Assembly: GCA_027028245.1 (NCBI GenBank)
Contig: JALVJO010000038.1
Location: forward strand, 17,545-81,544
Source of the DNA: Deltaproteobacteria bacterium
GTDB lineage: Bacteria > Desulfobacterota > Dissulfuribacteria > Dissulfuribacterales > QOAL01
Reading direction: 5' to 3'
DNA: 64,000 bases
The first letter of the stretch is position 1. Every line of letters begins with the position of its first letter. Made by a program: the position numbers and the translations under genes. This document shows positions 29,947 through 56,194 of the stretch, piece by piece. The notes below the pieces were generated by a model. It ran no database searches and was not told the origin of the DNA. It saw only the letters and a list, made by a program, of their open reading frames with translations.

Positions 29947-29968
29947 GGCACTTATTCGCCCGATCTCA

Positions 29969-33963: not shown

Positions 33964-34974
33964 TCAGTCCCGGGTTAAAACCCGTCCTCCACGGACAGCA
34001 CGTACAAAATAACGCCTGTTCTTGAATCCGCCCCTGTAAGGCTTTCCGTTTGAAAAATCCACAACCCAGGCCATATAGGGTGCATCCTCGCAGGTCGTGC
34101 TAGACCAATAGGCTCCGGCCCTTGCTCCTGGAAAAAACCTGCTGTTTACAAGGGGCAGCTTATCACGGAAAACCACTATACTTAATAATTCCTTGATATT
34201 GGGAAGTCTCCAGTCTGTAAAACCCCCGAGCTGGAGACCTTGGCAATATTTTAGTGCCTGTTTCCATGTCATGGGTTCCTGTTCATCGGCCTGAAACATC
34301 AGGCCAGAGGTTTCATCAGTGACTGTTCCATTGGTGCTCTTTAGAAACCTTCCAGTGGTCAAAGACGCACCTTTTACCGCAAGAACCTTCAGTTTTTCAT
34401 CTATGTCAAATATTTTTACCTCATTGGCAGCAGAGCAGTATCCAATGGCTTCCCGGGTATTTCCAAGACTGGTAACAGACCAGAAACAATCACTTACATC
34501 ACCGGCTGCATTGAAAACAGCAAAGACTATTCCCTGGTCGGAACCGAATGAACCAAGGGTTTCAAGTTCATATATAGTGGGAAGTCTCCACTTTTCTCCA
34601 CTCTTACTACATTGGCTATCCACAGCATCCAGGGCCTCGCTCCAGGTTGCACCCTGGGAGTTTATTTTCCTCCAGGTCAAACCAGTAACCTGATCCAATA
34701 CGATGTACTCCTGACCCTGTTCAATCACCGAATAAGAAGGCTTATTGATGAGATAGTTTCCGTCTTCTCCGAAAAAGGCCTCACCGGGCTTAGGACATGG
34801 AATCAGCCTGGAATCGTCAAAACAATGTTGCTGGCCCGTATCCGGCAGGAACATCTCGACAGCTGTGGTATTCGTACATTCAAGCCCGTGGTCCTGGTCA
34901 CCAGCGTTGGCCTGAACAGTAATTATTCCTGCAGTCATGGTTACTGCAAGCCAAATATAAAGACACCTTTTCAT
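33964..34974 (-). CDS. Secreted protein with two DUF1566 (Lcl C-terminal) domains
   Basis: LPDTGQ..CFD start. DxxTGLxW...WRLPxIxEL...YWS occurs twice, ending in VRAVRGG. Confidence 0.85.
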   Translation of the reverse strand: MKRCLYIWLAVTMTAGIITVQANAGDQDHGLECTNTTAVEMFLPDTGQQHCFDDSRLIPCPKPGEAFFGEDGNYLINKPSYSVIEQGQEYIVLDQVTGLTWRKINSQGATWSEALDAVDSQCSKSGEKWRLPTIYELETLGSFGSDQGIVFAVFNAAGDVSDCFWSVTSLGNTREAIGYCSAANEVKIFDIDEKLKVLAVKGASLTTGRFLKSTNGTVTDETSGLMFQADEQEPMTWKQALKYCQGLQLGGFTDWRLPNIKELLSIVVFRDKLPLVNSRFFPGARAGAYWSSTTCEDAPYMAWVVDFSNGKPYRGGFKNRRYFVRAVRGGRVLTRD

Positions 34975-34990
34975 GCCGTCTCCATGCCTG

Positions 34991-35833
34991 CTATTTGACG
35001 ATACTGTGAGCCACACCGTGACACCTGCCGCAGGAACCGAATTTTTTGAACATGACAGAAGGATGAGGCTGGCCGTGGCATTGCCTGCACCTTTTTATGG
35101 TCTTGTGTTTGTCAGGATGACATCTCGTACAGGACAGGGCGGAATGTTTTGTTCGGCTTTTTTTCAGCATCTCGTAAGCCTTTCTGTGGCAGAGGGCACA
35201 ATCCTCTGGGGATCTTTCATTGGAATACCTGACATTCAGTGCCTTGTGAGCTTGATGACATGCCTTACAGCCGTCAAGCGAAGTCGCAACCGGTTTGAAA
35301 CCCGCCTTGACCAATACCACACCCTGATGAGGCTGGTGACATTCCAGGCATTCCGGAATGTAACCATGCCTGGTGTGGTGACAAACCGTGCAGTGAAACT
35401 CAGAATGCTTGGTGGTAAAGGTCATGACCTCTTTATACAGCTTTTGGTGGCAGACCCGGCACCCCTCTGCCAGATACAGGGTTGCCGGGATATCAAGGGG
35501 AGTGTGGGCCTCAGTGTGACAGCTGCTGCAATCTGTCAACTCTTTCCCGTGCGGATGCCCATGGCACCTGGAACACTTGGGTAAAATATCCTGATAATCT
35601 GTCTTCCCCGGTTTATAAACGTGAAATTTCCGGTGGCAGCTCCTGCATGCCACCCGTTTATGACCAGCCCCGTTTATCCTTAAAAGCTTTGCAATAATCG
35701 GATGACACCTCATACATTCCTGTCGTGTAAGCCTGTCAGGATGTGGAGGATAAAGCCCATCTGCCCAGACAAATCCTGCCCCTGCCAGGAAACACAGCCA
35801 AAGGATAAAGACTGCCTGCAGGTTCATGGACAT
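34991..35833 (-). CDS. Periplasmic dodecaheme c-type cytochrome
   Basis: Signal peptide; 12 CxxCH motifs counted. Confidence 0.93.
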   Translation of the reverse strand: MSMNLQAVFILWLCFLAGAGFVWADGLYPPHPDRLTRQECMRCHPIIAKLLRINGAGHKRVACRSCHRKFHVYKPGKTDYQDILPKCSRCHGHPHGKELTDCSSCHTEAHTPLDIPATLYLAEGCRVCHQKLYKEVMTFTTKHSEFHCTVCHHTRHGYIPECLECHQPHQGVVLVKAGFKPVATSLDGCKACHQAHKALNVRYSNERSPEDCALCHRKAYEMLKKSRTKHSALSCTRCHPDKHKTIKRCRQCHGQPHPSVMFKKFGSCGRCHGVAHSIVK

Positions 35834-37179
35834 GCTGCCCTTTTATCCATTCCGGGCACTAACAGTGCTCCCATGCATCTGTGATCAAAGGTCTTCAGAT
35901 ATGGTATATCCAGATACTTGCCGGCATCTACAGCCGGGGATGTGTCCAAAATGGAAAAATCATAATTGTCAGGATCAGAAAAACGCGGATCTGCCAGTAT
36001 ATCTCCGCGGCCTTCAGACGGACAACCACCGTACTGCATCCTCCTTGAAAGGAAGGCGTGGTCCCTGTCCCGGTTAAATTCCGGGATCTGGCCGTTTGCA
36101 AAAATAAGATTGCTGGAAAAGTTGCCGCAGCGGGTTACCAGAAGGCCTGTACGTATGTTGTAGACAATGATGTTATTTGCAATATCGGCCGTGGCATTGC
36201 TGTCAATTCTAACCCCTGCCCCTTCATTTCTGCTGCCGTTTGAAACTATGGTATTATGGTAAATATTAATGGGCCCTGGTGCGGAATAAGTATCCGTTGC
36301 GGAAAGACAGGCGATTCCCGATTCCAGGTTGTTGTAAATCCAGTTATTCATGATTCCCAGGGAACCTGTACAGCCTCCACGGATAAAAATGCCCGCCTTC
36401 TTGTTGAAAAAGATTCGGTTTTCAACCACGTCTACGACAGGAAAACCAGATGTCCTGCTTTGTCCGTAGACACCAGAAGTGCCGTTTGAGAAAATATCAT
36501 TTCCGGCTGCGGCCAGTCGTACTCGGCCTTCAACACGCAGGCCTGCCCTTGCATTTTCATGGATCTGATTCATTGAAGCGTATATATGCAGGCCACTATC
36601 AGAGGAGACTGCGGCATACAGGCCGGCCTGGCCGTTTAAGAATATATCGCTCTCTATTATCCCAACCGAGGTTTCCCAGAAGCTTTCTTGTTCAATCTTC
36701 CTGATTCGTATCCCAGCGCCCTGGTTGTTAAATATACCCAAGTGCCTGCAATCCAGTCTCAAAATATTCCTGGCATCCAAGCCTGCACGTTGATTTCCAT
36801 AAATTCTGGAGTTTTCCACGTAAACATTTGCATTTTTTTCAATTCTGATGCCCCCTCTGCCGTTTCCATAAATATCGCATTCTGTCACCCTTACAGGCAG
36901 GGAACCGCGAATTCTCACGCCGCTTCTGTTGTTTTCATATATTTCATTTTTTTCCATGACCGCCTTGAATATTCCGGGATCAGGCAAAAAATTCCCTGTC
37001 TTCATCTCCCTTTTCACACCATCGGTACTGGTGGAGCCTGCTGCAGGAAAAAAACTCTGGAACTGACGCTCCTGAAGACTGCAGCCGGAAACAGGAATCA
37101 GGGGCACCAGACACAGCAAAAGAATCAGGCGAAAGTTGCGTTTGGTGCTGCTGCTCGGCTGGCCTTTTTTCATATCCAT
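35824..37179 (-). CDS. Parallel beta-helix lipoprotein
   Basis: Lipobox VSGC, NxIxxNxxAGI repeats, and C-terminal ILADPRF...SPAVDAG. Confidence 0.82.
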   Translation of the reverse strand: MDMKKGQPSSSTKRNFRLILLLCLVPLIPVSGCSLQERQFQSFFPAAGSTSTDGVKREMKTGNFLPDPGIFKAVMEKNEIYENNRSGVRIRGSLPVRVTECDIYGNGRGGIRIEKNANVYVENSRIYGNQRAGLDARNILRLDCRHLGIFNNQGAGIRIRKIEQESFWETSVGIIESDIFLNGQAGLYAAVSSDSGLHIYASMNQIHENARAGLRVEGRVRLAAAGNDIFSNGTSGVYGQSRTSGFPVVDVVENRIFFNKKAGIFIRGGCTGSLGIMNNWIYNNLESGIACLSATDTYSAPGPINIYHNTIVSNGSRNEGAGVRIDSNATADIANNIIVYNIRTGLLVTRCGNFSSNLIFANGQIPEFNRDRDHAFLSRRMQYGGCPSEGRGDILADPRFSDPDNYDFSILDTSPAVDAGKYLDIPYLKTFDHRCMGALLVPGMDKRAACP

Positions 37180-37182
37180 TTG

Positions 37183-38628
37183 TTAAAAAAACCTCTTGGA
37201 CAGGCCTGCGTGTATGACATAATCTTCAATCCAGCCGTTCTCCTGTTTCACCAACGGAACCCTGCCGCCTATCTCAAGTTTCAGGCCTTCGGCTACAAAA
37301 AACTGGAGACAGGGGGAAATAAAGAGACTGTTTCCGCCTTTGTCGGTCACCCAGGTATCTACAGGCACAGGACCTCCCGGGAGCCGCTGGGGTGTTATGA
37401 CGTCCGGCCTTCCTTTCATTGCCAGGATGTGCTGCTTTCTTCTGACATGTCCCCGCCAACGGTAGTTGAATTCAAGATCTCCGTATACCGAAGGATTAAG
37501 GGGATACAGGAAGGCAGCTCCCATGTTGAATTCATCTCCGACATGCTGCCCGTTGGTAAACTTGTATGAAACGTTGATGTTTGTCTGGACTTTGTTCAGC
37601 TCTGTACTAAGGGCCAGTCCAGGCATGAAATCTACACTTCCGGAGCCCAGCGGAATCCAGCGCCAGACATCCTCCTGACGGACATCCTTGTCCTTGCCGA
37701 TAGCATTTTGATCTCCAGTGGGAATGGACAAAAGGTGAAAAAAGGCAAGATGAGTCTTTCTCTTGCCCCAAAGATGATATTTGGTGAAAAAAACAGTGTC
37801 GCCAAAGCCGGATACATTGAATTCTGCCTTTGCATCAGGGCCCGGCACCGACTCCAGATTCACATCCACTGTTTTCCAGAAATATTTCCCGATAATACCC
37901 ATGGTCAATTTGTCCGTCACCGCATACCGCATGCCCATAATCAAGGTCTTCACATGAACGCTGCGTTCTTCTGCCGGGTAGAACAACGGAGAGCCTTGCT
38001 CGTACATATCGTCGGCAATGGTTGCAGTCTGGTGCCAGAAACGGAACAATGTGTCAAAAAGAAGTTTTCCCCTGGGCATGGGAAAGGCACTGATTCGATT
38101 GAAGGACGGATTGGTAACCATCCTGTGGTAAGGAAGCAGGTTCAGATCGAAATTGTGCAGTCTTTTGTAAATGTATTGAAGATTATTCTGTGCTGCCCTG
38201 CAATCAGGAAAGCTTTCCAGGAGTTTCTCCAGCTGGCTGGCCGCTTCTTCCAGTTTTCCCTGCATCCGGTAGATTTCAGCCGTATTTAGCATGGAATCTA
38301 CCAGCAGCTGCTTTGAGCCCGGCTGAGACATGAGAAAATCGCTGGAAAGGATCTGGATCTTTACCTGTTCGAACTCTCTTCGGGCAAGCCCCAGCCGGCC
38401 CTGCTGCATGTGGATCTTTCCCAGCCTCAGCTTGGCTTCTACCAGAAGCGGACACAGGTCAAGGGCTTTTTCCAGGCAGTATGTCTGGCGGTGGACATCG
38501 TGAAATGAGGCGGTTGCCTCCTGCAGCCATTCCCAGGCCTTGTCGCAATCATCCGCTCGAAGCCCGCACGGGAAACTCCATTCCAATAAAATGGCCAGAA
38601 TTATTATTGTCTTTTCCAGACGTGACAT
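37183..38628 (-). CDS. TPR-containing outer-membrane beta-barrel (MetA-pathway 'transporter'-like)
   Basis: Signal peptide and N-terminal TPR-like helices. GFGD, SIPTG and LGSGS motifs, alternating beta strands, terminal Phe. Confidence 0.7.
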   Translation of the reverse strand: MSRLEKTIIILAILLEWSFPCGLRADDCDKAWEWLQEATASFHDVHRQTYCLEKALDLCPLLVEAKLRLGKIHMQQGRLGLARREFEQVKIQILSSDFLMSQPGSKQLLVDSMLNTAEIYRMQGKLEEAASQLEKLLESFPDCRAAQNNLQYIYKRLHNFDLNLLPYHRMVTNPSFNRISAFPMPRGKLLFDTLFRFWHQTATIADDMYEQGSPLFYPAEERSVHVKTLIMGMRYAVTDKLTMGIIGKYFWKTVDVNLESVPGPDAKAEFNVSGFGDTVFFTKYHLWGKRKTHLAFFHLLSIPTGDQNAIGKDKDVRQEDVWRWIPLGSGSVDFMPGLALSTELNKVQTNINVSYKFTNGQHVGDEFNMGAAFLYPLNPSVYGDLEFNYRWRGHVRRKQHILAMKGRPDVITPQRLPGGPVPVDTWVTDKGGNSLFISPCLQFFVAEGLKLEIGGRVPLVKQENGWIEDYVIHAGLSKRFF

Positions 38629-38637
38629 CTCCTTTAA

Positions 38638-39363
38638 TCAACTCTGCCTGCATATTGGACAGGATGGATTCCTGACAAGTTCCAGTTCCTGGAATTTCAT
38701 GGCCTCAAAATCCATGATTAACATCCGGCCGGAAAGTGCCATTTTCCTGCCGGAGAGAAACTTTAAGGCCTCCATGGCCTGCATACTGCCGGTGGCACTG
38801 GTTACTGCTCCAAGGACAGGGGTGCATTCGGATTCCGGTGCGGACGGAAACACACAAGAAATACAAGGGGTGTGGGGAGGCTGAAAGACTGCCACACGTC
38901 CTTCCATACCCCAGACAGCCCCGTGGATCATGGGAATCCCCTTTTTAAGGGCACACTGGCTCAATGCATAACGGGCCTCAAAGTTATCCAGGCAGTCTAT
39001 TATAATCTGGGCGTCGCCCACCAGTTCATTGACATTTTCAGAAGTGATCTTTTTATCGATTGTTTCGATTCCAGAGTCCGGGTTCAATCCCCTGAGGCAT
39101 TCTTTGGCAGAACTCGTCTTTTTGGCCCCTATATGAACATCCCTGTGAAGAAACTGACGATTAAGATTGGTTATGTCCACCATGTCAGAATCACATATCC
39201 TGATTATGCCTATTCCTGCAAGTGCCAGGTTGAGTGCTACTGGACAACCCAGTCCTCCTATCCCGGCAACAAAAACCCTGCTGTTCCTCAGCCTTACCTG
39301 GGTGTCAACCCCCCAGCCCTCCAGCAGGATCTGCCTGTTGTATCTATCAAATCTTTCCCTCAT
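38638..39363 (-). CDS. ThiF/MoeB/HesA E1-like adenylyltransferase (no rhodanese domain)
   Basis: RYNRQI, GIGGLG, DxDxVDxTNLNRQ, DCLDN, and two CxxC pairs (PCISC, SCPIC). Confidence 0.93.
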   Translation of the reverse strand: MRERFDRYNRQILLEGWGVDTQVRLRNSRVFVAGIGGLGCPVALNLALAGIGIIRICDSDMVDITNLNRQFLHRDVHIGAKKTSSAKECLRGLNPDSGIETIDKKITSENVNELVGDAQIIIDCLDNFEARYALSQCALKKGIPMIHGAVWGMEGRVAVFQPPHTPCISCVFPSAPESECTPVLGAVTSATGSMQAMEALKFLSGRKMALSGRMLIMDFEAMKFQELELVRNPSCPICRQS

Positions 39364-40803
39364 TTATGCGGCACTGCATGATCCATCTGGACTGGCCAAG
39401 GGACACAGCCTTTCAACTTCAACATCCTGCTCGCCTAGATCTTTTAAAACCTTTGCCGCAGCACCAGCTGCAAGTCTTTCTGAAAATCCAACATGGCTCT
39501 CCGGACTTATTATTGCCCTGATTTCCTCCTTGGAATATGAGCTGGCTATTCCCTCCTTTTTAAAGAGGATATCAAGAAATTCTCCCCTTTTTTCAGCAGC
39601 CTCCATGGCGGCTTCGTAAATCAACTGGTGGGCCCTGTCCTTCCCCATTTTTTCCCCGATATAAAACATCAAGGCCTCGCTGCATATCAGGGGTGCTGCA
39701 TTCTTAACATTATCACGGATCCTGTCCGTATGCACAACCAGCTCGTTCAAAATAAATTTCATTTGAGAAAGGGCAGAACAGGTATACTGGCATGAATCCG
39801 TTATGGCTGCCCATTCCACCCTGACAGCCCTGTAATCCCTCTCGTGTTCATTTATAAGGCACTCCATGCCCAGACCGGCTTGAGCCCTGACAAGCTTGGC
39901 AAGTACTGCCACCTGTTCGCACATTTCCGGGTTTCTCTTGTGGGGCATGGTACTGGAACCTATTTTACCATGGTGAAAAGGTTCTTCCATTTCACCCAGA
40001 CTGCTTCTGGAAAGCCCCCTTATTTCTTCAGCAATCTTGGCAAGGGTTCCACATATCAAAGCCAGCAAATTTAAAAATTCCGAAAAACGGTCCCTGGAGT
40101 TATGCCACGGAGTATCAGGCGGTTTTAGCTCCAGGCTGCGGGAGAACCTCTCCAACAGCTGCGGTGCCATTGGACCGAATGAATCCATGGTACCGACCCC
40201 TCCAAAGAGCTGGCTGACCAGGATTCTTTTTCTTGTCTCTTCCAGCCTTTCAAGGTGCCTGGCCAGCTCATCAAGCCATACGGCCATCTTGAGACCCAGT
40301 GTCATGGGAAGTGCATCCTGGGTGTGAGTACGTCCTACTGTTACCACGTCTTTGAAATGTTCCACCAAGGCAGCCAGCCGCCTCATTATAGAGACAAGAT
40401 CCCTGTGAACTATTAAAAGGACATCCCTGATCTCAAGAACCTGGGCGGTATCCTGGATATCCTGCGTAGTTGCCCCGTAGTGTATATATCCCCGGCTGGA
40501 CTTTCTGCATTTCACAGCCAGGGCGTTCAAGAGGGGCAGGAGGGAATGACTGGTACTCTCAAGCTCTCTTTTTACTGTCTCAAGATCCAGTTTTCTTATG
40601 TCTGCATTGGAGCTTATGTCACGGGCTGCACTGTCTGGAATAATGGCCAATGAGGCCTGAGTCACTGCCAATACGGCCTCGACATCAAGCCAGCGCTGAT
40701 ATCTGTATAAATCGCAAAAGATCCTCTTTACCTCAGGTGTTGCATATCCTCTGGAATAAAATCTTGAGTCTGTTATATGGCTTGCAGGACTGCACCTGGT
40801 CAT
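39364..40803 (-). CDS. Adenylosuccinate lyase/fumarase superfamily lyase B
   Basis: HYGATTQD, GRTH, GGVGT, signature GSSTMPHKRNP and HERD. Confidence 0.88.
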   Translation of the reverse strand: MTRCSPASHITDSRFYSRGYATPEVKRIFCDLYRYQRWLDVEAVLAVTQASLAIIPDSAARDISSNADIRKLDLETVKRELESTSHSLLPLLNALAVKCRKSSRGYIHYGATTQDIQDTAQVLEIRDVLLIVHRDLVSIMRRLAALVEHFKDVVTVGRTHTQDALPMTLGLKMAVWLDELARHLERLEETRKRILVSQLFGGVGTMDSFGPMAPQLLERFSRSLELKPPDTPWHNSRDRFSEFLNLLALICGTLAKIAEEIRGLSRSSLGEMEEPFHHGKIGSSTMPHKRNPEMCEQVAVLAKLVRAQAGLGMECLINEHERDYRAVRVEWAAITDSCQYTCSALSQMKFILNELVVHTDRIRDNVKNAAPLICSEALMFYIGEKMGKDRAHQLIYEAAMEAAEKRGEFLDILFKKEGIASSYSKEEIRAIISPESHVGFSERLAAGAAAKVLKDLGEQDVEVERLCPLASPDGSCSAA

Positions 40804-40874
40804 ATTCTTGGCCTTTGCACGTGGAAAAATGGTTTTAAATGTTTAAGGCAGCAGTCTGCCTCAATTGCAACAAA

Positions 40875-42248
40875 CTAAAGTTCCTGGGGGTCTTCAGCCC
40901 TTGATCTCCTGATTTGGCCTGCAACCTGGTTTATGATATTTACCGCCTGGCCCGTGTAGGCTTCGGGACTGTCCAGCATAAAAAGATCTCCTTTACTGAA
41001 AAGACCTCCTATCCCGGGATCTTCCATCACCAGCTCGCCAATGTTTCTGTCTTCTTTTTTTGCCTTTTCCACGATTTTGTTCAACTTTTCCATTGCATTC
41101 ATCTTGCCTATCTTTTCTCCCAGCCTGAAAAGAAGCCATTCCCCAGCTATAAAATCACCTTTAGATCTCAAGTTTTCGTACATTCGTTTAGTGTCTATTT
41201 CCAATGAGGACAAGATTGATTTCATATAAGAGGCAGCCGCACCTGTATAAATGCATATTTGAGGCATTGACAGCCATTCGGCCCACAAGCACCTTGGATC
41301 CCTTTCGTGTTCATGACACATGCTCTCTATTGCAACCGCAGAGAGAGCTCGAATGTGTTTTGAAAGTGCCTGAACCCTTTGACACAAAACGGGATTACGC
41401 TTGTGTGGCATGGTAGAACTTGCAGGCTGTCCCGGGGCCGCTTCAAAGAGTTCGGCGATCTCCGATTTCTGAAGTTGGTAAATCTCGTTTGCAATCTTTG
41501 AAAACGTGGAAGAAAGCATGGCCAGACAGCAGGCTGTATCCGCGATTGCATCGCGCCGCGTATGCCATGCCAATGGGTCATGCTCGAGGCCCAAAAGCCT
41601 CAATGTATGGCTTGCAATTTCAAGGGCGTTTTCTCCGAGAGCTGCAAGGGTCCCAACCGCACCGCCGAACTGACCATATCTAAGCCCGGAATGGCGATCT
41701 CTTATCCTATGGATATGGGACCTGATCTCCTTAAGCCAGACGGCAGTCTTGAGACCGAATGTGATTGGAAGGGCCTGCTGACCATGTGTTCTTCCTGCCA
41801 TGGGTGTGTCGGCGTACCGTTCTGAAAGAAGCAGGCAATTTGTTTCTATTTCTCGAAGATCCTTGTACATAAGTCCAAGGCTCAGGCGGATTCCAATGAT
41901 TTCAGCAGTATCAATGACGTCCTGGGTTGTGGCACCGTAATGAACATATTGTCCAGCCTCGCTGCTGCAGGCATGTCTCAAGGCCTGTAAGAGAGGGACC
42001 AAAGAATTCCGGCTTTTTCCATAACCTTTTCTGATTAAAGACTTATCCAACCGGTCAAAACGGGCATTTTCAACTATCTCCCGAGCTGCAGTCCCGGGGA
42101 TAATGCCCTTGTCTCCAAGGGTTGAAGCAAGCGCTGCTTCAAAATCAAGCCATCTCTGGAAAACAGCTTCTTCTTCGAATATCTCCCGTTGTTCCGGCGT
42201 ACTGAAAACATCCTGATTCAGGTGAAAATCAATCGGATGAACAGACAT
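40875..42248 (-). CDS. Adenylosuccinate lyase/fumarase superfamily lyase A
   Basis: HYGATTQD, GRTHGQQA, GAVGT, signature SSTMPHKRNP and HERD. Confidence 0.88.
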   Translation of the reverse strand: MSVHPIDFHLNQDVFSTPEQREIFEEEAVFQRWLDFEAALASTLGDKGIIPGTAAREIVENARFDRLDKSLIRKGYGKSRNSLVPLLQALRHACSSEAGQYVHYGATTQDVIDTAEIIGIRLSLGLMYKDLREIETNCLLLSERYADTPMAGRTHGQQALPITFGLKTAVWLKEIRSHIHRIRDRHSGLRYGQFGGAVGTLAALGENALEIASHTLRLLGLEHDPLAWHTRRDAIADTACCLAMLSSTFSKIANEIYQLQKSEIAELFEAAPGQPASSTMPHKRNPVLCQRVQALSKHIRALSAVAIESMCHEHERDPRCLWAEWLSMPQICIYTGAAASYMKSILSSLEIDTKRMYENLRSKGDFIAGEWLLFRLGEKIGKMNAMEKLNKIVEKAKKEDRNIGELVMEDPGIGGLFSKGDLFMLDSPEAYTGQAVNIINQVAGQIRRSRAEDPQEL

Positions 42249-42357: not shown

Positions 42358-42927
42358 TCAACTGATAATAATGGGGACCTCTTTTTCCCTAATGCCTTCA
42401 TAAAAGGCCCGAATAATCGGCCGTGATGGATCCACCAAGGAGATAATAAAGCTGAAAAGATTCGAATTTTTGGCCAGAATCATGTCCAGTTTGGTGGGCG
42501 TATCGCGCAGCCGATCATGATCCCATGGAACAATGTGCATGTGATAGGTGCCTATGGCAAGCAAATCATCTCTGTCGCATATTTCGTAACACTCCCTCAA
42601 TTCTTCAGGGTCGGTTATCCATCCCCTCTGGGAAAGCGGGGTCTTGGAGGCCACGGCATATCTGTTCATAACGTCATCCATATAGCTCTTAAGTGGCTCG
42701 TGCATCCTGGCATTTTTCTTAAAATAAAAAATTTTCAGTACATGAGCCGCGTCACCATCCAATGTCCCTGCAAGCATGCCATAGGCTCGTTTCACCCTGG
42801 TTTCACCCGGCAGATATTCTCCCGCCAGTTTTCTTCGGCAGTGCGACTTTACATCATCCCAGAGGGCCTCAGGGAGAAATATGTTTTTAAGACTTGATAA
42901 ACCTGTCACAGAATTCGACCTTGTCAA
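42358..42927 (-). CDS. Divergent JAB/MPN (Mov34) domain protein
   Basis: RAYGMLAG (compare EACGLLAG), IGTYHMH...TPTKLD (compare GxYHSH...PSxxD) and FIISL. Overlaps the ThiS-like gene by 4 nt. Confidence 0.6.
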   Translation of the reverse strand: MTRSNSVTGLSSLKNIFLPEALWDDVKSHCRRKLAGEYLPGETRVKRAYGMLAGTLDGDAAHVLKIFYFKKNARMHEPLKSYMDDVMNRYAVASKTPLSQRGWITDPEELRECYEICDRDDLLAIGTYHMHIVPWDHDRLRDTPTKLDMILAKNSNLFSFIISLVDPSRPIIRAFYEGIREKEVPIIIS

Positions 42928-43187
42928 CCCCCCGCTATGGGAATAATAAGAGAAATCTCATCGTCTTGTTTAAGACTTATCTGAGACCAGTCCTTTTGCT
43001 GGACCTTGACAAGTCTGCCGTTTACAAAGATGGAAAGAAGCTTAGGCTGCTCAAAGAGCACGTTTAGACCTTCATGCATCTGGACAAGTCTTTTCATGGT
43101 CCCTTCCAGGTCAGGGGCATCGATGACAATTTCTCGCTCGTTGTCAGTATATTTTCTATAAGGAAATGGAATTATAACGCGTGCCAT
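42924..43187 (-). CDS. MoaD/ThiS-family ubiquitin-like sulfur carrier
   Basis: 87 aa from ATG 43187; IFVNG, LKQDDEISLIIPIAGG-stop. Confidence 0.9.
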   Translation of the reverse strand: MARVIIPFPYRKYTDNEREIVIDAPDLEGTMKRLVQMHEGLNVLFEQPKLLSIFVNGRLVKVQQKDWSQISLKQDDEISLIIPIAGG

Positions 43188-43194
43188 GATATTC

Positions 43195-44058
43195 TTATCG
43201 TGATGATTCAAGCACTTCTGAAAGGGCCTGGGGAATATATGCCAGAATCTCCGAAATCTGCGTAGCAGGATTAGGTTGAGCAAGCTCTCCTGCTCTCCTG
43301 TTTGCCCTGCCTGCCACCATGCATGCCTCCACCGGAGTCTTTCCAGCGTAAATCAGGCCGCTGATCATGCCGGTGATAAGGTCCCCGGTACCTCCTACCG
43401 CCTCCATGGTTTCTACACATGGAGAATCGATTGTATCCACCACATTGCCGTCATGACAGATGTAATCCACTTTCCCCTTTACAAACATGGTCTTTGGCGC
43501 ATTTTTAGCCGCATAGGCCCGTTGAATCAGCTCCGTGACATTTTCTTCCATATGGAAAATAGCACCTCTGGTAAAAGCAGGATGGTCGGCCTTTTCATCA
43601 GCCAAAAAGGTCAGTTCTCCGATATCAGGTGTAAAAACATCGTAAAATACGGCATCTCCACCCGCCTTGGCCACATACATGGAACCGGCATCTGCTATGA
43701 GCACCGGTTTCCTGGGCATTTTTTTTACTGATTGCAGCACCCGTTTATTCAATTTCAAATCAGGCATTATGTAATGGAGGGTCATTACACTAAGCTGGAG
43801 AATGGGAAGATTTTCCTCGAGATATCGATAAATGGCCTCGCTTCCTTCCCTTTTTCCTATATCACCGGCTACAAGACCTACTGGTCTTTCACATCCCAAC
43901 AGCTCGCAAACCTGGCAGGCTGCAGTCATCATGGCTTCGTTGCCCCTGTTGATTCCAAGTTTTCTGCCGCCAATCTCAATACCTTCAGGAGAATAATCGA
44001 TGTGGCCCATGACAAGGGAAAGACCTTCCACGGGTACAGATCCTGCTAAAAGCAACAT
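43195..44058 (-). CDS. Ribokinase-fold protein (YjeF-C / NAD(P)HX dehydratase-like)
   Basis: LIADAG, FTPDIGEL, VKG..D and GGTGDLITG motifs. Confidence 0.75.
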   Translation of the reverse strand: MLLLAGSVPVEGLSLVMGHIDYSPEGIEIGGRKLGINRGNEAMMTAACQVCELLGCERPVGLVAGDIGKREGSEAIYRYLEENLPILQLSVMTLHYIMPDLKLNKRVLQSVKKMPRKPVLIADAGSMYVAKAGGDAVFYDVFTPDIGELTFLADEKADHPAFTRGAIFHMEENVTELIQRAYAAKNAPKTMFVKGKVDYICHDGNVVDTIDSPCVETMEAVGGTGDLITGMISGLIYAGKTPVEACMVAGRANRRAGELAQPNPATQISEILAYIPQALSEVLESSR

Positions 44059-44061
44059 CCG

Positions 44062-44607
44062 TCAGTCTCCTATGAGCCTGATCATTTCTTCTCTTGCCGT
44101 ATTGAGAGAATATGCGCAAAGGGAAAATCCTACTTCACCCGGGTCCGGGGCTTCGCGGAGCCTTTTGCCCAGCATGGACGTGGCAAGAAATGGGACATCC
44201 GGGCAACCACCTCCCGAAATATTAACGATTTCGCGGCTTTCCTTGTCCACGGTAATCTTCATGTTGGCTGCACGCACCATAAGATACCTGCCGAAATCCT
44301 TCACCCTGACGAACTGGAGGGGCTCGGTGCCCTTGGATGTTATGGGCACCACATCCATTGGTGGCAGTCCCACCCGGTGGAGAAGCTCAACTATTGCTGA
44401 TTCTGCATCAAAGGGAAACTCGACGCTCAAATCGCAGCCTGTTCTGTATGTGGGAGGCGGACTGACCACCCTTATGTCATACCCTTCGTCTCTTAAAAGC
44501 TCCTGAACCGAAATTACCGTTGTGGGATGCGCAAAAATCAGGAGTCCGCGGTCAGGCTTTCCTGTGTATTCTTTCTTTTTTTCTTTTTTCTTTTTAAACC
44601 AGAGCAT
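44062..44607 (-). CDS. DUF3343-domain protein (Cys-containing)
   Basis: PPPTYRTGCDL, NISGGGCPDVP and SLCAY motifs. Start at ATG 44607; the upstream part of the ORF overlaps yedE in another frame. Confidence 0.7.
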   Translation of the reverse strand: MLWFKKKKEKKKEYTGKPDRGLLIFAHPTTVISVQELLRDEGYDIRVVSPPPTYRTGCDLSVEFPFDAESAIVELLHRVGLPPMDVVPITSKGTEPLQFVRVKDFGRYLMVRAANMKITVDKESREIVNISGGGCPDVPFLATSMLGKRLREAPDPGEVGFSLCAYSLNTAREEMIRLIGD

Positions 44608-44654: not shown

Positions 44655-45731
44655 CTACCTGACAGCCGCTGGAGACCTCCGATAATACATGACTAAAACT
44701 ACACATGCCATGAGCCCTGCCAGCACGGCAATCTTTCCGTAAAAAGTCGGCCCTGCAGACGTTGATCTTATTGACCAACCAATGACCAAAGCCGCACCTG
44801 TGAGCATGCCAAAACACGTAACAGCCGAATCCACGTCCCCCTGGCCTGCCTTGATCACCTGTCTGAAGGGACAACCATCTATTATTACCGAGGCCAACCC
44901 TACCAGCATCATGGCTAAAAATGTCCACAGATGACTGGTATGAGAGGCGGGTTGACCGTTCAGACCCAGATGAAACTGTCCCAGCACAAGGCTGAGCACC
45001 AATGCCCCCAGAAACGCAGCCAGCACCCCCTTAAACAAGGTGCCCTCGCGAACAAGAAACAGGTTTCTGAAGCCACCGGTTATGCACAATCCTGAACGCT
45101 GTGCCAGACAGCCGATTACGAAGCTCACTGCCAGGGAGATAGGTACAGGTGCGTGCAGTGCGGCAGGACCAGTCTGGCCGAATACGATGAAGGCAGGCTT
45201 CATAAATAGGAAAAGAAGCAGGTTCAGGGCAAACAACGGAAAGATGTATCCGTTTATCTTGGGAAGCTTTCTCACTCTATCAAGGGCAACCCCGGCCTTT
45301 ATATACCTTGCCCCAAGCCATACACCAAGCATAAGACCCAGGAGGGCAGCGCAGGCCGTCAGGTCACCTGCAGCCAGCCGGTGAATCATCTTAATTGGGC
45401 ATCCTATAAACACCGCACAGCCCACTATCATAAAAAAACCCAGAAAAAAACGTATAATGGGAGAAGAGCCTCCAGTCACCTGAAAACGCCTTGTTGCCGT
45501 TGCCATGGCAAATGATCCAAGTACAAAACCGATCAATTCCGGCCTGAGATAGCTCATTCTGACATGAGAGTGAAGCTGCATGGCCCCGGCAAGGTTTTCC
45601 AGGAAACAGGAAAGACAGATACCTGAATTTACAGGGTTGCCCAGGTATGAAAGAACGACACAGCCGGCGCCAAGGACAGCACCGGTAATAATGGAAACGT
45701 CAAAGAAGCTCTTAAACACCTCTATTCGCAT
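44655..45731 (-). CDS. yedE: YedE/YeeE-family sulfur/selenium transporter (selenium-metabolism type)
   Basis: GNPxNxGICxxCF, YLRPEL.G, FIGCP, QRSGLC..GG and DGCPFRQ motifs; about 9-10 TMs. Confidence 0.85.
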   Translation of the reverse strand: MRIEVFKSFFDVSIITGAVLGAGCVVLSYLGNPVNSGICLSCFLENLAGAMQLHSHVRMSYLRPELIGFVLGSFAMATATRRFQVTGGSSPIIRFFLGFFMIVGCAVFIGCPIKMIHRLAAGDLTACAALLGLMLGVWLGARYIKAGVALDRVRKLPKINGYIFPLFALNLLLFLFMKPAFIVFGQTGPAALHAPVPISLAVSFVIGCLAQRSGLCITGGFRNLFLVREGTLFKGVLAAFLGALVLSLVLGQFHLGLNGQPASHTSHLWTFLAMMLVGLASVIIDGCPFRQVIKAGQGDVDSAVTCFGMLTGAALVIGWSIRSTSAGPTFYGKIAVLAGLMACVVLVMYYRRSPAAVR

Positions 45732-46285
45732 CCTCCGGCTATTCTGCGTTGAAGGTAGTAGATATCGTTTATGGCAGTTTGAATCTGTTTATCTTCAGGT
45801 TTCAGTTTTTTCTCCCTGTTCAGCTTTCCTCTGGCACTTGAAATCAGCTTCATTATTTCGTCACCTATATAGAGAGGCGTGGTCTTGTCAACGTAATCCG
45901 GATCCAATTCTACAGCGCGGCGATAGCTGCGGACTGACTTAACAATTTGTCCCTGCTGGCTGTAAAGCCTTCCAAGCAGTACAAGGCCGTAGGCATCATC
46001 GGGATGATCTTTTAGGATTTTTAAAACCTTGGAAACGGCCTGATCGAAATCCCCTTTTTTTTCAAGATAAAGGACATCCTTATAAAGCCAGGCCTTCTTG
46101 GCCAGCTGTTCTTCATATCTCTTCTGAAGGGTATTTATACCTGGTGAGCCGTGGCTAGAGTCGGCCTTCAATTCAAGCTCGTGCTGCACAATCATGCCGG
46201 CAGTAACAGCAACAAGCACAATCAGAACAGCAGTATTCACTCGGAAAAACCAATCCACCCCTTCATTCTCCATATGGTTCGCCAT
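45722..46285 (-). CDS. Membrane-anchored TPR protein with C-terminal -IAGGCE
   Basis: One N-terminal TM and TPR repeats (LLGRLY..YRRAVELDPDY). Overlaps the yedE start. Confidence 0.8.
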   Translation of the reverse strand: MANHMENEGVDWFFRVNTAVLIVLVAVTAGMIVQHELELKADSSHGSPGINTLQKRYEEQLAKKAWLYKDVLYLEKKGDFDQAVSKVLKILKDHPDDAYGLVLLGRLYSQQGQIVKSVRSYRRAVELDPDYVDKTTPLYIGDEIMKLISSARGKLNREKKLKPEDKQIQTAINDIYYLQRRIAGGCE

Positions 46286-46324
46286 TTATGAAGTGGAGCA
46301 GCAATCTTGATCTAGATCCAGGGA

Positions 46325-47293
46325 CTAAAACCGTCCGGCTCCTGAAACGGGTTCATTGGCAAAGTTGCATATCCTGACTCGACCAAGGCCCTTATCACTG
46401 GATGCATCCTTGATGCTGCTTCTAATCTTTTTCAAATCAGTACTTCCCCACCAGTTATAGCGGGCATCAACATCCTGCTCCTGACCTTCCAAGAGGGAGA
46501 TGTTATAATCTGAGTTATCAAAGATATTGTTCTCTCTTAATATGAGCCGGGGGACGGAATACAAGATGATCCCTTTTGCGTTCTTGAAAATATTGTTGAA
46601 GCGGATGCAGCATGGACCGCTTTTCTTGGTAAAGATGCCGAAGAATTTATTTTCTGTGATTTGATTATGGGATATTATAGAATTGGCAGATCCCCCGATC
46701 AATATGCCGCCGCCATTTTGCCAGATCCTGTTGTAAACAACGGGTACAGCACATTTTATATCCATACCCCGTATATTTTTCATTCCTATGGCAACACCAT
46801 TGTCGTGCAGCCTGCAGCGGCTGACCAGCACCTGTGCTGAATGGCAGTGTATTGAGGTATGACCGTAACTGATGCTGCAAAACTCCAGGATATTGTCCCT
46901 GCTGCCGATGAAATTAATGGCTCCCCAGTCTGAGACAGACGGCCTTTTTTCAGCGCTGGTAAAGGTGATCATCTTGTCCCTTAATCCCTGGGCGATAAGT
47001 CTGCCCCTGACAATCAGTTCGGCCCTGGGGAAATGATTTGCCTTATCAAGACTGAGTTTATCAGGCCCGAAATCCTTAATCTTTTTAAATCTGATATTGG
47101 TCCCGGGAAGGATTATCAGAGTAGCCCCCCTGTTTATCCTCACATCCCCCTTCAGGAGGATGTCTCCCTGCCACACCGTGTCAGAAGTTATTTCCGTCTT
47201 GCTGTTTATTTCCTGGACTGCATAAGCTGGAGATGAATAAAGGAGAAAAAAAACATTCAGAACAAAGAAAAAGAATCTTGCCAGCTTTACCAT
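46325..47293 (-). CDS. Secreted parallel beta-helix protein
   Basis: Signal peptide; DTVWQG..GATLIILPGT, ITFTS...DWGAI and DARYNWWG motifs. Confidence 0.82.
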   Translation of the reverse strand: MVKLARFFFFVLNVFFLLYSSPAYAVQEINSKTEITSDTVWQGDILLKGDVRINRGATLIILPGTNIRFKKIKDFGPDKLSLDKANHFPRAELIVRGRLIAQGLRDKMITFTSAEKRPSVSDWGAINFIGSRDNILEFCSISYGHTSIHCHSAQVLVSRCRLHDNGVAIGMKNIRGMDIKCAVPVVYNRIWQNGGGILIGGSANSIISHNQITENKFFGIFTKKSGPCCIRFNNIFKNAKGIILYSVPRLILRENNIFDNSDYNISLLEGQEQDVDARYNWWGSTDLKKIRSSIKDASSDKGLGRVRICNFANEPVSGAGRF

Positions 47294-47823
47294 TAAGATC
47301 TCTCCGCTCCGGATTTGGTCAGCATCTTAATCTCGTCTTTTATCTTCTGCTTGTCTGCAGGCCCTTGGGCAAGGGTTTCAGCCCTGGAAAATTCCTGTTC
47401 AGCATCCACCTTCCTGCCCATTTTCTCAAAAACCACGGCCTTATGTACATGAACCAGGATATCAGAAGAATTTACCTTTTCTGCAATGTTGAAATATTGC
47501 ATTGCCTTTTCAAGGGCATTCTTTTTCATGAAGACCAGCCCGAGACCATCCAACGCATTGAAGTTACGGGAATCCTTTTTCAGAACCTTTTCGAATTGTT
47601 TCTGAGCTTCTTCCATCTGTCCTGCCAGCCAGTATGCCATGCCAAGCTTGTTCCTGGTTTCCAGGTCATCAGGGTTCATGAAAAGGACCATGTTGTACTG
47701 CAAAATCTGTACGGAAGGGGGGAACTTAGATATGTCACCGTGGGCAAACACCTGGGAGGGGCCGATACACATTGCAATACAGGCCAATATACAGACTGCA
47801 GCTTCAAAACATTTCATGGTCAT
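47293..47823 (-). CDS. Periplasmic TPR protein
   Basis: Signal ending VFA-HG; TPR repeats (RNKLGMAY, ALDGLGLVF). Confidence 0.82.
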   Translation of the reverse strand: MTMKCFEAAVCILACIAMCIGPSQVFAHGDISKFPPSVQILQYNMVLFMNPDDLETRNKLGMAYWLAGQMEEAQKQFEKVLKKDSRNFNALDGLGLVFMKKNALEKAMQYFNIAEKVNSSDILVHVHKAVVFEKMGRKVDAEQEFSRAETLAQGPADKQKIKDEIKMLTKSGAERS

Positions 47824-47874
47824 CAGATCAGTATCAGAATCAAATTCCGCCTAAAACCAACGTCTCTTTCACAG

Positions 47875-48807
47875 TCAATCTTTACGATATGGAGCCATAT
47901 TGCAGAGTTTCAGCCTATCGCGTATGGGGTCATATTCTTTATCTACGGCCTTGACGAAGCCGTCTATCCACATGCGCTTAAGCACCTTTAGTACCTCCCC
48001 GTCTACCAGGACTGTCTCATCCTTTTTCAAATTTAAAAGCAATTCCAAAACCTGTTCCTGAAGAACAGGATCAACCTGGGGCATGGCACCAATGGTGCAG
48101 TATGGCATGGGTATGCTCTCGGCTATAATGTTGAAATCCTGTTTGCGAACCTTATGTTCTTCAATCATTTGGTCCAGATCGATCCTGGGAGCCGCCCCCA
48201 CATCATATTTGCCAAAATAAACTCCATAAATCACCTTTTCATGCTTTGCAGAGCCCATGGGGATGGCATAAAGTGAAAAATCGATTTCCGGGTCAAATCC
48301 ATGCTTCAAAAGCATTGCATATTGGGCCATAAAGCCGAAGGGAGCCAGGGCAGGTCCGAAAATCATGCTCTTTCCCTTCATGTCCTTTATGGTCTTTATA
48401 CCGCTGTCTTTCAGCGAAATTATGGTTCCTGTTGACTTGTAGCCATTTCGTCCGCGAACATCTACTGCCAGAAGCTTCATGCCGAATCTCTTATTGAGCA
48501 TTATGGCGATTATGGAATTGACATGGACAAAATCCACCTTCTTTTGCTGGGCCAGATCTTCAAATTCGAACGTATTTGCCAGGACCATTTCGAATTTCCT
48601 GCCTGTCTTTTCAGAAAGATAGGCAGTAAGAGGAGCAAATCTTGCCCGGGACTGTTCCCGGCTGTCGCAAATCATGAAGCCTATGCGGACAGGTTTTTGA
48701 CTGGTGAACTTGGAGCCCTTATCTTCTTTGCTGCACCCAGAAAGGGCGAAAATAAAAACACCTAAAATTATTGTTATTGCCTTGATATATATATTATTGG
48801 GATCCAT
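47875..48807 (-). CDS. PhnD-like substrate-binding lipoprotein (orphan)
   Basis: Lipobox LSGC; RFAPLTAYLSEKTG, SGIKTIKDMKGK and HEKVIYGV..G.YDVG motifs. No ABC permease or ATPase nearby. Confidence 0.82.
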   Translation of the reverse strand: MDPNNIYIKAITIILGVFIFALSGCSKEDKGSKFTSQKPVRIGFMICDSREQSRARFAPLTAYLSEKTGRKFEMVLANTFEFEDLAQQKKVDFVHVNSIIAIMLNKRFGMKLLAVDVRGRNGYKSTGTIISLKDSGIKTIKDMKGKSMIFGPALAPFGFMAQYAMLLKHGFDPEIDFSLYAIPMGSAKHEKVIYGVYFGKYDVGAAPRIDLDQMIEEHKVRKQDFNIIAESIPMPYCTIGAMPQVDPVLQEQVLELLLNLKKDETVLVDGEVLKVLKRMWIDGFVKAVDKEYDPIRDRLKLCNMAPYRKD

Positions 48808-48855
48808 ATCAATGATAATCTGCCCGCGTTTCCGTTAGTACAAAAATACTAGTCT

Positions 48856-48884
48856 ATTTTCCCAAACAAAAACATTATTGTCAA
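48856..48884 (-). promoter_or_regulatory. Putative sigma70 promoter heading the 16-gene run
   Basis: Minus strand TTGACA-17 nt-GAAAAT with extended TG, about 50 nt before the ATG. Confidence 0.5.
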
Positions 48885-49148
48885 GTTAAACGCAATCTAA
48901 CTGTTAGAGTTCTTCTTAAATTCCAGCTTCAACTACAAAGATAAAATATTAAAGAAAATTATTAAATCACAAAAAAATAATTGTTTATATAAGATATTGA
49001 GGAGAGTGATGGGTCGGCCGGCGCCAAACAAGAAGACTATTCCTTTAAAACTGTCACTAGGACACAAAACTGGTTTCTCAATTGAATCAGGAAGACGGAA
49101 AGGGTGCTGCTGGAAGCCCGCTGAACAAGACGACTTTTGTGCTGCCAT

Positions 49149-49766
49149 TTAAATCAGGTTTCTCTGTTTGAGAAATTTTTTGATGGCAGCTTTATCTTTG
49201 CCTGAATCAGAACTTTGCACCAGCTCTTTTAAGACGGCATCGTCTATCTTGCCGCTCAACTTGTTTATCACCCTGTCGAGTACTGGAAACTTATTAAGGA
49301 CCTTTCTGGTAATGACTGCTGCTGCCAGAGAATCTTGGTCAGAGTCTGATTGCAGGTACTGATCAACGGGTCCATGATAACCAAAAGGCCTAAGCCATAT
49401 CATGGAATAATTATGTATAAAATACTGCTTTACCAGTGAATAGGTCTCCTGGGCAGTATTACCCTGCCTTATCCCGGGAATGGCTGAACTGGCAGGTCCT
49501 GTATAGCTGATGAATATATCCGCATCCCCCCTCTTAACCATATCCTGGCATTCATGGATATCTGAGCACGATTTCAGATTCACCGTGGTACCAGTTCTTT
49601 CATTTATGAAAACTGCAAGAACATTGCCTACAGTCTGCTGATCAGGAGATGAATCTACAGCCAGATTCAATATTCGGCCTACACACGAAATAGCCGAATC
49701 GCAAATTATAAATTGCAAAAATATTATAGTAATGAAGATAAAGAAGAATTCTGTCCTTTTCATCAT
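49149..49766 (-). CDS. Truncated OpuAC/glycine-betaine-like periplasmic binding protein
   Basis: RBS AGGAGG; signal then CVGR; DIFISYTG, WLRPFG and KFPVL..VINKLSGKI motifs. Short for a full SBP. Confidence 0.6.
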   Translation of the reverse strand: MMKRTEFFFIFITIIFLQFIICDSAISCVGRILNLAVDSSPDQQTVGNVLAVFINERTGTTVNLKSCSDIHECQDMVKRGDADIFISYTGPASSAIPGIRQGNTAQETYSLVKQYFIHNYSMIWLRPFGYHGPVDQYLQSDSDQDSLAAAVITRKVLNKFPVLDRVINKLSGKIDDAVLKELVQSSDSGKDKAAIKKFLKQRNLI

Positions 49767-49905
49767 GAAAGCCTCCTGATCTGTCATATCAATAAAATTC
49801 AAAGTTGGATGCGCTTATAAAAAACCTTATTAGCTGAATTGTCCAAGAAAAATTGGATCTTTGTTTAGGTTTCTCTATCAAAGTATTTTAAGGCTGCATG
49901 GGATT

Positions 49906-55116: not shown

Positions 55117-55132
55117 ATTGAAGGAGGAGATT

Positions 55133-56116: not shown

Positions 56117-56140
56117 TAACGGCATTACAAGCAGAACAAC

Positions 56141-56194
56141 AAAGGGCCCGGCTGCCCCTAAGAGGTATCCGGGCCTTTCCTTTTTCATTTTTTT
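56141..56194 (+). terminator. Putative intrinsic terminator after cytochrome pair
   Basis: AAAGGGCCCGG...CCGGGCCTTT stem followed by T-rich run. Confidence 0.55.

Follow-up and report, generated by a model that had tools for sequence, protein, structure and literature searches.

Tandem lyase paralogs, one of the FlcB clade, in a ThiS/ThiF/JAMM-like operon of a Desulfobacterota bacterium

In the CysO-Mec+-CysM, HcyS-HcyD and QbsCDE systems a ubiquitin-like (Ubl) carrier ending in GG is served by an E1 adenylyltransferase and by a JAMM hydrolase active at the carrier C-terminus. Small molecules, among them thioacids that bind metals, receive sulfide equivalents in this way, and Mec+ acts on CysO-Cys. 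The use of fumarate as a removable thiol mask is known from one aerobic pathway, that of fluopsin C: in the accessible part of its published description, FlcB joins L-cysteine to fumarate, and at a later step FlcC cuts the C-S bond, with return of fumarate. The accessible portions of further reports describe XcbD, which adds cysteine to sulfoacrylate, and 2SL, which catalyses a reversible and promiscuous succination of small thiols with the equilibrium on the adduct side. In this study we describe a cassette with two adjacent lyase genes, here called LyA and LyB, in a stretch of 64,000 nucleotides from a Deltaproteobacteria bacterium of the Dissulfuribacterales (assembly GCA_027028245.1, contig JALVJO010000038.1, positions 17,545 to 81,544). 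We refer to this whole stretch as the window, and all positions below are window positions unless a locus is named. As judged by sequence, the cassette would be a recombination of Flc-type thiol-succination lyases with a ThiS/ThiF/JAMM carrier system. We propose, with a probability of about one half, that the two are long-standing paralogs, specialised lyases of the aspartase/fumarase superfamily that act in succession, and not as PurB, in a ThiS/ThiF/JAMM chalcogen-carrier pathway.

The lyase pair and its relatives

LyA (40875 to 42248, minus strand) encodes 457 aa with a Pfam Lyase_1 domain (PF00206; 130.9 bits, E 8.8e-38, cut-off 27), and LyB (39364 to 40803, minus strand) encodes 479 aa with Lyase_1 (154.5 bits, E 5.9e-45) and ADSL_C domains. 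The two open reading frames (ORFs) were confirmed, and their products are 36% identical across 455 residues. Both contain GRTH, SSTMPHKRNP and HERD, so the impression of two adjacent, diverged lyases with catalytic motifs, given by a first-pass annotation of the bare sequence, holds. In an alignment of seven sequences (LyA, LyB, FlcB, FlcC, an XcbD-like protein, a LyB from Salmonella and the genome's own PurB) the residues T112, D115, R158, H160, S283, M286-P287-H288-K289, N291-P292 and H320-E321-R322-D323 are invariant. The extra two-cysteine tail that had been noticed on LyB is real. It reads RLCPLASPDGSCSAA and has the form CPLx(n)C; among 20 aligned LyB orthologs C467 and P468 never vary, and at least 90% keep C476. 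LyB also has a conserved N-terminal Cys, and C4, C30, C99 and C295 are invariant in the same orthologs. The tail is a feature of LyB of the Desulfobulbales type and is not found in the actinobacterial, gammaproteobacterial or Flc proteins. LyB directly abuts the E1 gene, as had likewise been seen: the gap from the LyB stop to the ThiF start is 0 nt, and 71 nt separate LyA from LyB.

Profiles and trees indicate that neither lyase is PurB, PcaB or ArgH. The genome assembly (205 contigs, 96% complete) holds four Lyase_1 genes: LyA, LyB, a canonical PurB on contig 20 (575.3 bits on TIGR00928, cut-off 326.2) and a canonical ArgH on contig 110 (631 bits). LyA and LyB fall under every curated NCBIfam cut-off, with 269.1 and 325.0 bits on the purB model, while on the PcaB models the pair scores 283.6 and 254.4 (TIGR02426, cut-off 355.75) and 361.7 and 334.0 (NF006554, cut-off 595). 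Trees were calculated with FastTree (67 rows) and with IQ-TREE under LG+C20 (32 chosen rows); duplicates of one gene, partial ORFs below 420 aa and the majority of near-identical rows from Actinobacteria and Desulfobulbales were removed for redundancy. Both lyases stand apart from the genome's PurB in both trees, and in the IQ-TREE analysis they do not group with the pcaB-annotated row either. Among solved structures the closest are 3c8t ('fumarate lyase'), the trans-aconitate decarboxylase Tad1, PcaB (1re5) and CreD, and true adenylosuccinate lyases rank behind them. The case foreseen by the first-pass annotation as fatal to its own view, in which one of the genes is the only housekeeping PurB, is thus not what we find, since PurB lies elsewhere and neither paralog groups with it. 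Its picture of non-housekeeping paralogs inside a sulfur-carrier cassette is borne out by this separate PurB and by ThiS and ThiF in the operon. In agreement with it, no pur, arg or pca gene occurs among the 40 window ORFs scanned against Pfam; the scan did not extend to 14 other ORFs of 120 aa or more, most of them at 1-15.7 kb. The cassette is flanked in the window by genes for polysaccharide synthesis and export, beta-helix proteins and multihaem cytochromes.

The closest characterised relatives of the pair are the C-S enzymes FlcB, FlcC and XcbD, which act on fumarate or an analogue; this upholds the kinship with S-fumarate chemistry that had been suggested. As a reference for the Flc proteins we used a locus of Pseudomonas paraeruginosa (L072), which is the fluopsin flc cluster: its 328-aa gene matches the FlcD structures 3BJD and 8W1Q (641 bits), an FlcD-paralogous oxidase lies upstream and a methyltransferase downstream. 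Its lyases were assigned as FlcC (8466-9899) and FlcB (9896-11350) because, in the accessible part of the source, the order flcABCDE corresponds to PA3515-3519 and FlcA is the methyltransferase. LyB is 47% identical to the protein in the FlcB position and falls within the FlcB clade with a support of 99 (FastTree) and 100/99 (IQ-TREE). On NF006500 (PRK08937.2-4, cut-off 626) FlcC reaches 797, FlcB 839, LyB 546.4 and LyA 398.7 bits, and on the XcbD model NF052536 LyA (400.4 bits) and LyB (478.6 bits) remain under the cut-off of 600. An XcbD-like row from Nocardioides stands just outside the LyB clade and a 2SL-like row from Pantoea pairs with PurB, away from LyA and LyB (both IQ-TREE). Placed among the known lyases, as the first-pass annotation had proposed, LyB thus joins FlcB at a distance from PurB, whereas LyA, which belongs to a separate and well supported clade (100/100, IQ-TREE), is not joined to FlcC.

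The arrangement is repeated elsewhere. A scan of species genomes gave 80 related loci, and a tandem of an A-type and a B-type lyase recurs in 32 of them (in the same order in 31), which places the pairing beyond chance. The core order along the minus strand is YedE, Se/S carrier, kinase-like protein, ThiS, JAMM, LyA, LyB, ThiF; all eight are present at 12 loci and the JAMM-like gene at 34. Using tblastn for the dehydrogenase-like, NicO, FlcD and FlcE neighbours, we found a gene resembling Glu/Leu/Phe/Val-type (ELFV) dehydrogenases next to LyB or LyA at 55 loci, and a NicO-family Ni/Co transporter at 12, eight of the Desulfobulbales type and four from Streptomyces, hence in two unrelated phyla. 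Variants occur in Desulfobulbales, in Gammaproteobacteria, on a Salmonella plasmid and in Streptomyces. A gammaproteobacterial metagenome-assembled genome carries ThiF-rhodanese, a class V aminotransferase, JAMM, LyB, LyA and ThiS, and Marinobacter gelidimuriae carries JAMM, the dehydrogenase, LyB, a beta-propeller protein, Prok-JAB and a ThiS-ThiF-rhodanese fusion. On the Salmonella plasmid (L088, NZ_CP022016.1) ThiF, JAMM, LyB, the dehydrogenase, a LyA-TrmO fusion, ThiS, a solute-binding protein, a porin and an SLC13 permease are found; the fusion (L088:9535-11334) joins an LyA-type lyase to a TsaA/TrmO-type methyltransferase domain (TIGR00104, 127 bits), and the whole protein is annotated as tsaA. 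The Streptomyces loci have NicO nearby, then the dehydrogenase, LyB, JAMM, an NmrA-like protein, ThiS, an AMP-binding-like protein, an aldehyde dehydrogenase and an MFS protein. ThiF, ThiS, a cysteine desulfurase or a rhodanese lies beside LyB and JAMM at four loci (L047, L057, L069 and L088). We surveyed 69 genomes of the window's class, 51 of them of good quality. The cassette is accessory, because its JAMM-like gene is present in 14 of the 69 (10 of the 51 good ones) and in three of six genomes of the genus.

The JAMM-like protein and the ThiS carrier

Between ThiS and LyA lies a gene for a protein of 189 aa (42358 to 42927, minus strand), which the first-pass annotation passed over, as it did the link to the fluopsin lyases and the dehydrogenase-like and NicO neighbours. 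No Pfam or NCBIfam family, JAB and Prok-JAB included, matches this protein, in the case of Pfam even at E up to 10. Its AlphaFold2 model has a predicted local distance difference test (pLDDT) value of 93, and Foldseek matches it with a probability of 1.00 to 2kks, Pyrococcus PfJAMM1 (5ld9/5lda, with and without SAMP2), 8tyx and Rpn11; a bacterial Ubl-deubiquitinase is among the top matches. H129, H131 and D148 of the metal-binding HxH...D motif are invariant in 21 homologs, with a spacing that we take to be longer than that of the canonical JAMM motif. Judging from this predicted fold, we are confident that the protein represents a JAMM/MPN family of its own, unseen by Pfam and NCBIfam. It is a small family: out of 1.84 billion proteins, clustering at 50% identity gives 113 representatives, and there are 601 clusters at 90% identity (E up to 1e-10). 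The 120 listed clusters are without a Pfam domain, and any name given to them is 'hypothetical', with two exceptions ('proteasome lid subunit'). Six longer representatives were scanned and three of them (P0296, P0289 and P0318) are fused to ThiF; further fusions are to a class I methyltransferase (P0248) and a PP-binding domain (P0259).

The adjoining ThiS/MoaD-type carrier (42924 to 43187, minus strand; 87 aa, Pfam ThiS, E 1.2e-06) ends in a free GG, and its 13 orthologs all end in AGG or TGG. The E1 adenylyltransferase of the ThiF/MoeB type (38638 to 39363, minus strand; Pfam ThiF, 239.8 bits) has no rhodanese domain and stays under the MoeB, ThiF and UbaA cut-offs of NCBIfam. The genome contains two ThiS-family and two ThiF-family genes only, the operon pair and an adjacent pair on contig C205 (L103), together with a lone MoaE-like gene on contig C136 (L105). 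A complex model of the JAMM-like protein with ThiS scored 0.87, compared with 0.00 for the best of three controls, a score that may mirror mere likeness to solved JAMM-Ubl complexes such as 5lda. Among 80 solved complexes 58 came up to this mark, and among 110 mismatched pairs 2. Three runs share at least 87% of the contacts, with a partner pLDDT of at least 89. Residues 83-87 of the ThiS tail are predicted to lie against residues 101-105, 127, H129, T145-D148 and 151 of the JAMM-like protein; in this model the GG tail would enter the HxH/D site.

A proposed pathway and its alternatives

For the substrates, the order of steps, the product and the metal we infer the following scheme. LyB, like FlcB, would add a thiol across fumarate to give an S-(2-succino) thioether and thereby mask the thiol, which would probably be that of cysteine or a cysteine-like amino acid, either free or on ThiS. 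The masked intermediate would then be reworked, in most relatives by the adjacent ELFV-type dehydrogenase, and a second sulfur would come from the ThiS thiocarboxylate, made by ThiF with sulfur arriving via YedE and the DUF3343 carrier. In a third step the JAMM-like protein might free ThiS from the acyl adduct, following the precedent of Mec+ and CysO-Cys, and LyA would finally remove the succinyl handle or perform a related beta-elimination. The product would be a small thiol-bearing metabolite, most likely a nickel or cobalt ligand; a metal ligand is suggested by the NicO neighbours together with the fluopsin precedent. One may speculate that the Cys tail of LyB or the DUF3343 carrier relays sulfur, as suggested by a ThiF without rhodanese domain and a conserved Cys tail on the abutting lyase.

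Besides the caveat on the complex model given above, several observations weigh against this proposal. LyA is 38% identical to the protein in the FlcC position and is not joined with FlcC (node 82/72), so that only its pairing with LyB argues for a C-S cleaving role. The equilibrium of 2SL favours succination, according to the accessible part of its description, and removal of the succinyl group would therefore need a pull. At 14 of the 80 loci LyA and LyB occur with solute-binding proteins, a NosD-like protein and mostly JAMM, with no ThiS or ThiF in reach. The dehydrogenase-like gene is not present in the window or at loci L005, L006 and L012, and a query with the L032 protein found none in the 96% complete genome, which leaves the middle step without a candidate enzyme in this organism. 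A tblastn search of the window gave no NicO gene. Both LyA and JAMM are missing from actinobacterial loci that carry a thiamine pyrophosphate (TPP) enzyme, the dehydrogenase and LyB. This trio of TPP-dependent enzyme, ELFV-dehydrogenase-like protein and LyB recurs among the actinobacterial loci L048-L064, L071, L076 and L080, and tblastn showed it at 14 loci.

Selenium might take the place of sulfur in the same architecture. The three genes in question encode a YedE-family transporter of a cassette-linked subtype (44655 to 45731, minus strand), an Se/S carrier with DUF3343 (PF11823) and DUF8182 domains (44062 to 44607, minus strand, with a chosen gene start; its homolog clusters carry PF11823 and PF26554) and a Carb_kinase protein of the NAD(P)HX dehydratase/ThiM-like family (43195 to 44058, minus strand; PF01256, 51.3 bits). 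They could deliver selenium to ThiS as a selenocarboxylate, with Se-succinyl intermediates and a small selenol compound as product, on a route bypassing selenophosphate; we consider this possible, if unlikely. The transporter passes the 'selenium transporter' model TIGR04112 (394 bits, cut-off 200), an in-frame TGA in SelD shows that the genome makes use of selenium, and the YedE family and DUF3343 have been tied to SelD-bearing organisms by comparative genomics in the accessible part of PMC5322559, where the kinase-like member is not discussed as a selenium gene. Two YedE subtypes exist in the class. The one scoring about 480-490 bits on TIGR04112 forms a group with a paralogous carrier and a paralogous kinase-like gene immediately next to SelD in all four genomes examined (G056, G058, G059 and G071), and the one scoring about 370-394 bits is found in exactly the 14 genomes with the JAMM-like gene and in none of the 55 others, a count in which related genomes do not stand for independent cases and both genes frequently lie on one contig. 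The SelD-linked trios lie at L106:14138-19628, L109, L110 and L111, and a 455-aa gene between trio and SelD has no relative in the PDB by sequence. However, the two kinds of trio are only 41-50% identical, and G056 and G071 hold both, which suggests different jobs. SelD is present in 50 of the 51 good genomes and the cassette in 10, so that their co-occurrence is uninformative; with SelD nearly universal, a cassette-type YedE is not needed for general selenium supply. Relatives employ a rhodanese or cysteine-desulfurase-type enzyme, and to our knowledge every characterised ThiS system carries sulfur.

With sulfur as the element, the ThiS thiocarboxylate could itself be the nucleophile on LyB, and the JAMM-like protein would then hydrolyse a ThiS-S-succinyl thioester to mercaptosuccinate, which the first-pass annotation had named as an example, or to a close derivative. 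The adjacency of lyase, ThiS, ThiF and JAMM, the addition of thiols to fumarate in the LyB clade and a DASS/SLC13 dicarboxylate-type permease in both the operon and the Salmonella locus agree with such a route, as does the free GG end of ThiS, because of which JAMM is not required for trimming. But it would leave the second lyase and the dehydrogenase-like gene of 55 loci without a role, and known members of the clade take a small amino-acid thiol rather than a protein thiocarboxylate, which makes it quite improbable to us. Chemistry on N-succinyl bonds also comes to mind, either with aspartate as amino donor as in PurB and ArgH or with amine addition as for ethylenediaminedisuccinate (EDDS), leading to an aminocarboxylate chelator while ThiS serves another step. 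C-N or C-O cleavage is the default of the superfamily, LyB with its 325.0 bits is just short of the purB cut-off, a neighbour resembling amino-acid dehydrogenases is common, and metal transporters would fit a chelator. Against these points stand the tight and repeated linkage to sulfur-carrier genes and the nearest characterised relatives of LyB in the tree, which are the C-S enzyme FlcB and the XcbD-like protein and not PurB; nor was a ligase of the PurA, ArgG or SAICAR-synthetase type seen in the cassette. We doubt strongly that N-succinyl chemistry applies, and nothing points to the EDDS-type disuccinate chelator that the first-pass annotation had offered as one product. That annotation had also spoken of a heterotetramer or a two-step pair on an S(Se)-succinyl compound, and it is the two-step pair that we favour. 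The superfamily forms tetramers with active sites built between subunits, and the lyases are adjacent at 32 loci, so one obligate hetero-oligomer with mixed active sites could be imagined. Yet each lyase has the full set of catalytic residues, all four cable-bacterium genomes examined keep LyA and LyB unlinked and megabases apart, at least 27 actinobacterial loci have LyB without LyA, the gap between the lyases here is 71 nt compared with 0 nt between LyB and ThiF, and FlcB and FlcC, in the accessible part of their description, work as separate enzymes; an obligate complex is thus very unlikely. There is next to no chance that one of the lyases serves as an extra housekeeping PurB or as the PcaB of a route for aromatic breakdown. 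The database labels of the orthologs, 'adenylosuccinate lyase' or '3-carboxy-cis,cis-muconate cycloisomerase', would say so, whereas the canonical PurB, the purB and pcaB cut-offs, the trees, the lack of pca genes among the scanned ORFs and the patchy distribution of the cassette all speak to the contrary.

A more far-reaching form of the stepwise pathway is that the cassette builds an ene-dithiol (dithiolene-type) or thiol/selenol nickel ligand, a long shot in our estimation. The first chalcogen would come from cysteine and be masked by LyB as an S-succinyl thioether; the dehydrogenase would oxidise the amino acid to a 2-oxo acid, the ThiS thiocarboxylate would give its carbonyl the second chalcogen, and LyA would unmask the first. 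If true, the cassette would provide the first biosynthesis of a free dithiolene ligand apart from molybdopterin, and a candidate origin for nickel-sulfur cofactors of Desulfobulbales; one of these is the nickel bis(dithiolene) of cable bacteria, still without explanation. Cable bacteria carry LyA, LyB, JAMM and the dehydrogenase. The accessible parts of the papers on their nickel and sulfur genes do not mention the cassette, and those of the papers on nickel bis(dithiolene) name no biosynthetic genes. A specific tie to this cofactor is weak, because the cassette is common in non-cable relatives and in other phyla.

The logic of a fumarate mask would here operate together with a sulfur carrier of the ubiquitin-like kind, a JAMM family that had gone unrecognised and a YedE uptake module of the selenium type, in anaerobes and scattered other phyla and often beside nickel/cobalt transporters. 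Full-text searches, with supplements and subscription papers outside their reach, gave no published description of the cassette. If the stepwise pathway is correct, it would represent a widespread path, as yet without a name, to a small ligand containing sulfur (or selenium), and would put a name to several hundred clusters labelled 'hypothetical' or 'adenylosuccinate lyase'. The cassettes of Marinobacter and other Gammaproteobacteria are compact enough to be expressed for product discovery, and the cassette offers a concrete test case for selenium on ThiS-type carriers.

Operon surroundings and comparison with known systems

Upstream of YedE the operon continues (45722 to 51279, minus strand) with, in 5' to 3' order, the DASS/SLC13 permease, two solute-binding proteins (one phosphonate-type, one OpuAC-like), a TPR protein, a NosD-like beta-helix protein and a second TPR protein, as assigned by Pfam, NCBIfam and synteny in related loci. 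Downstream of ThiF (33964 to 38628, minus strand) Pfam identifies a TPR protein with a MetA-type outer-membrane barrel, a beta-helix/NosD-like protein, a multihaem cytochrome c and an Lcl_C protein, with gaps of 9, 3, -10 and -26 nt; the set is co-located at L005, L020, L022, L107 and L108. Scans for promoters and terminators did no better than shuffled sequences (18 terminator-like sites, 19.8 expected). No riboswitch was found at the operon by Rfam in the window or at L020, L032, L069 and L088. The only matches of that scan were a STAXI RNA in L088 and, elsewhere in the window, a cobalamin riboswitch (59369-59490, minus strand; RF00174, 89.9 bits) directly upstream of an OprB-family porin gene (57817-59226, minus strand). 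The YTD sulfur-disproportionation cluster, which consists of YedE-related, TusA and DsrE-like genes with two conserved hypothetical proteins (PMC13047784), was rejected as an identity for the operon, in which no DsrE or TusA match to Pfam was found. A second multihaem cytochrome c set followed by a beta-helix protein (54316-57682, plus strand) mirrors the pair at the 3' end of the operon (34991-37179, minus strand). Five beta-helix/NosD-like ORFs occur in the window altogether (7411-10314, 16183-17931, 35824-37179, 46325-47293 and 56255-57682), and a B12-binding radical SAM enzyme (28483-29988, minus strand) lies amid glycosyltransferase, WecG and sugar-transferase genes of a polysaccharide cluster.

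When the cassette is set beside the systems described so far, it shares the GG-ended carrier, the E1 enzyme and the JAMM protein with ThiS/MoaD-ThiF-JAMM systems. In those, however, the acceptor enzymes are pyridoxal phosphate enzymes or acyl-adenylate ligases, whereas here they are fumarate lyases, and the JAMM protein of the cassette belongs to a separate family outside Pfam and NCBIfam. According to the accessible parts of its description, 2SL of yxe-type S-(2-succino)cysteine breakdown is a reversible thiol-fumarate C-S lyase of the same superfamily. Unlike our pair it serves catabolism; its neighbours are an acetyltransferase, a deacetylase and an ABC importer, a make-up that the Pantoea locus shows. 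XcbD, described in the same partial way as the 3-sulfopropionylcysteine synthase of bacterial coenzyme M synthesis, is likewise PurB-like, places a cysteine thiol onto an activated alkene and works alongside another superfamily member, XcbC; its model is the best or second-best NCBIfam match of both LyA and LyB. The XcbD-like row falls outside the LyB clade, though, and XcbC is ArgH-like while LyA is not. A search of the 96% complete genome for the ComA/XcbB family (PF02679 ComA) found no member, and with both lyases under 600 bits on XcbD the coenzyme M pathway was rejected.

The flc operon remains the nearest parallel. It has two adjacent PurB-like lyases, as in LyA and LyB, it uses fumarate as a recycled thiol mask, and what it finally makes is a metal ligand containing sulfur. 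The flc genes continue with a methyltransferase, and some variants of the cassette have a methyltransferase fused to LyA or to JAMM. On the other hand, no haem-oxygenase-like FlcD or FlcE was found by tblastn in the window or at cassette loci, LyA and LyB stay under the NF006500 cut-off, and LyA lies outside the FlcC group. Where flc relies on O2-dependent enzymes, the cassette would have ThiS, ThiF, JAMM, YedE and the dehydrogenase in their place, a replacement that fits anaerobes.

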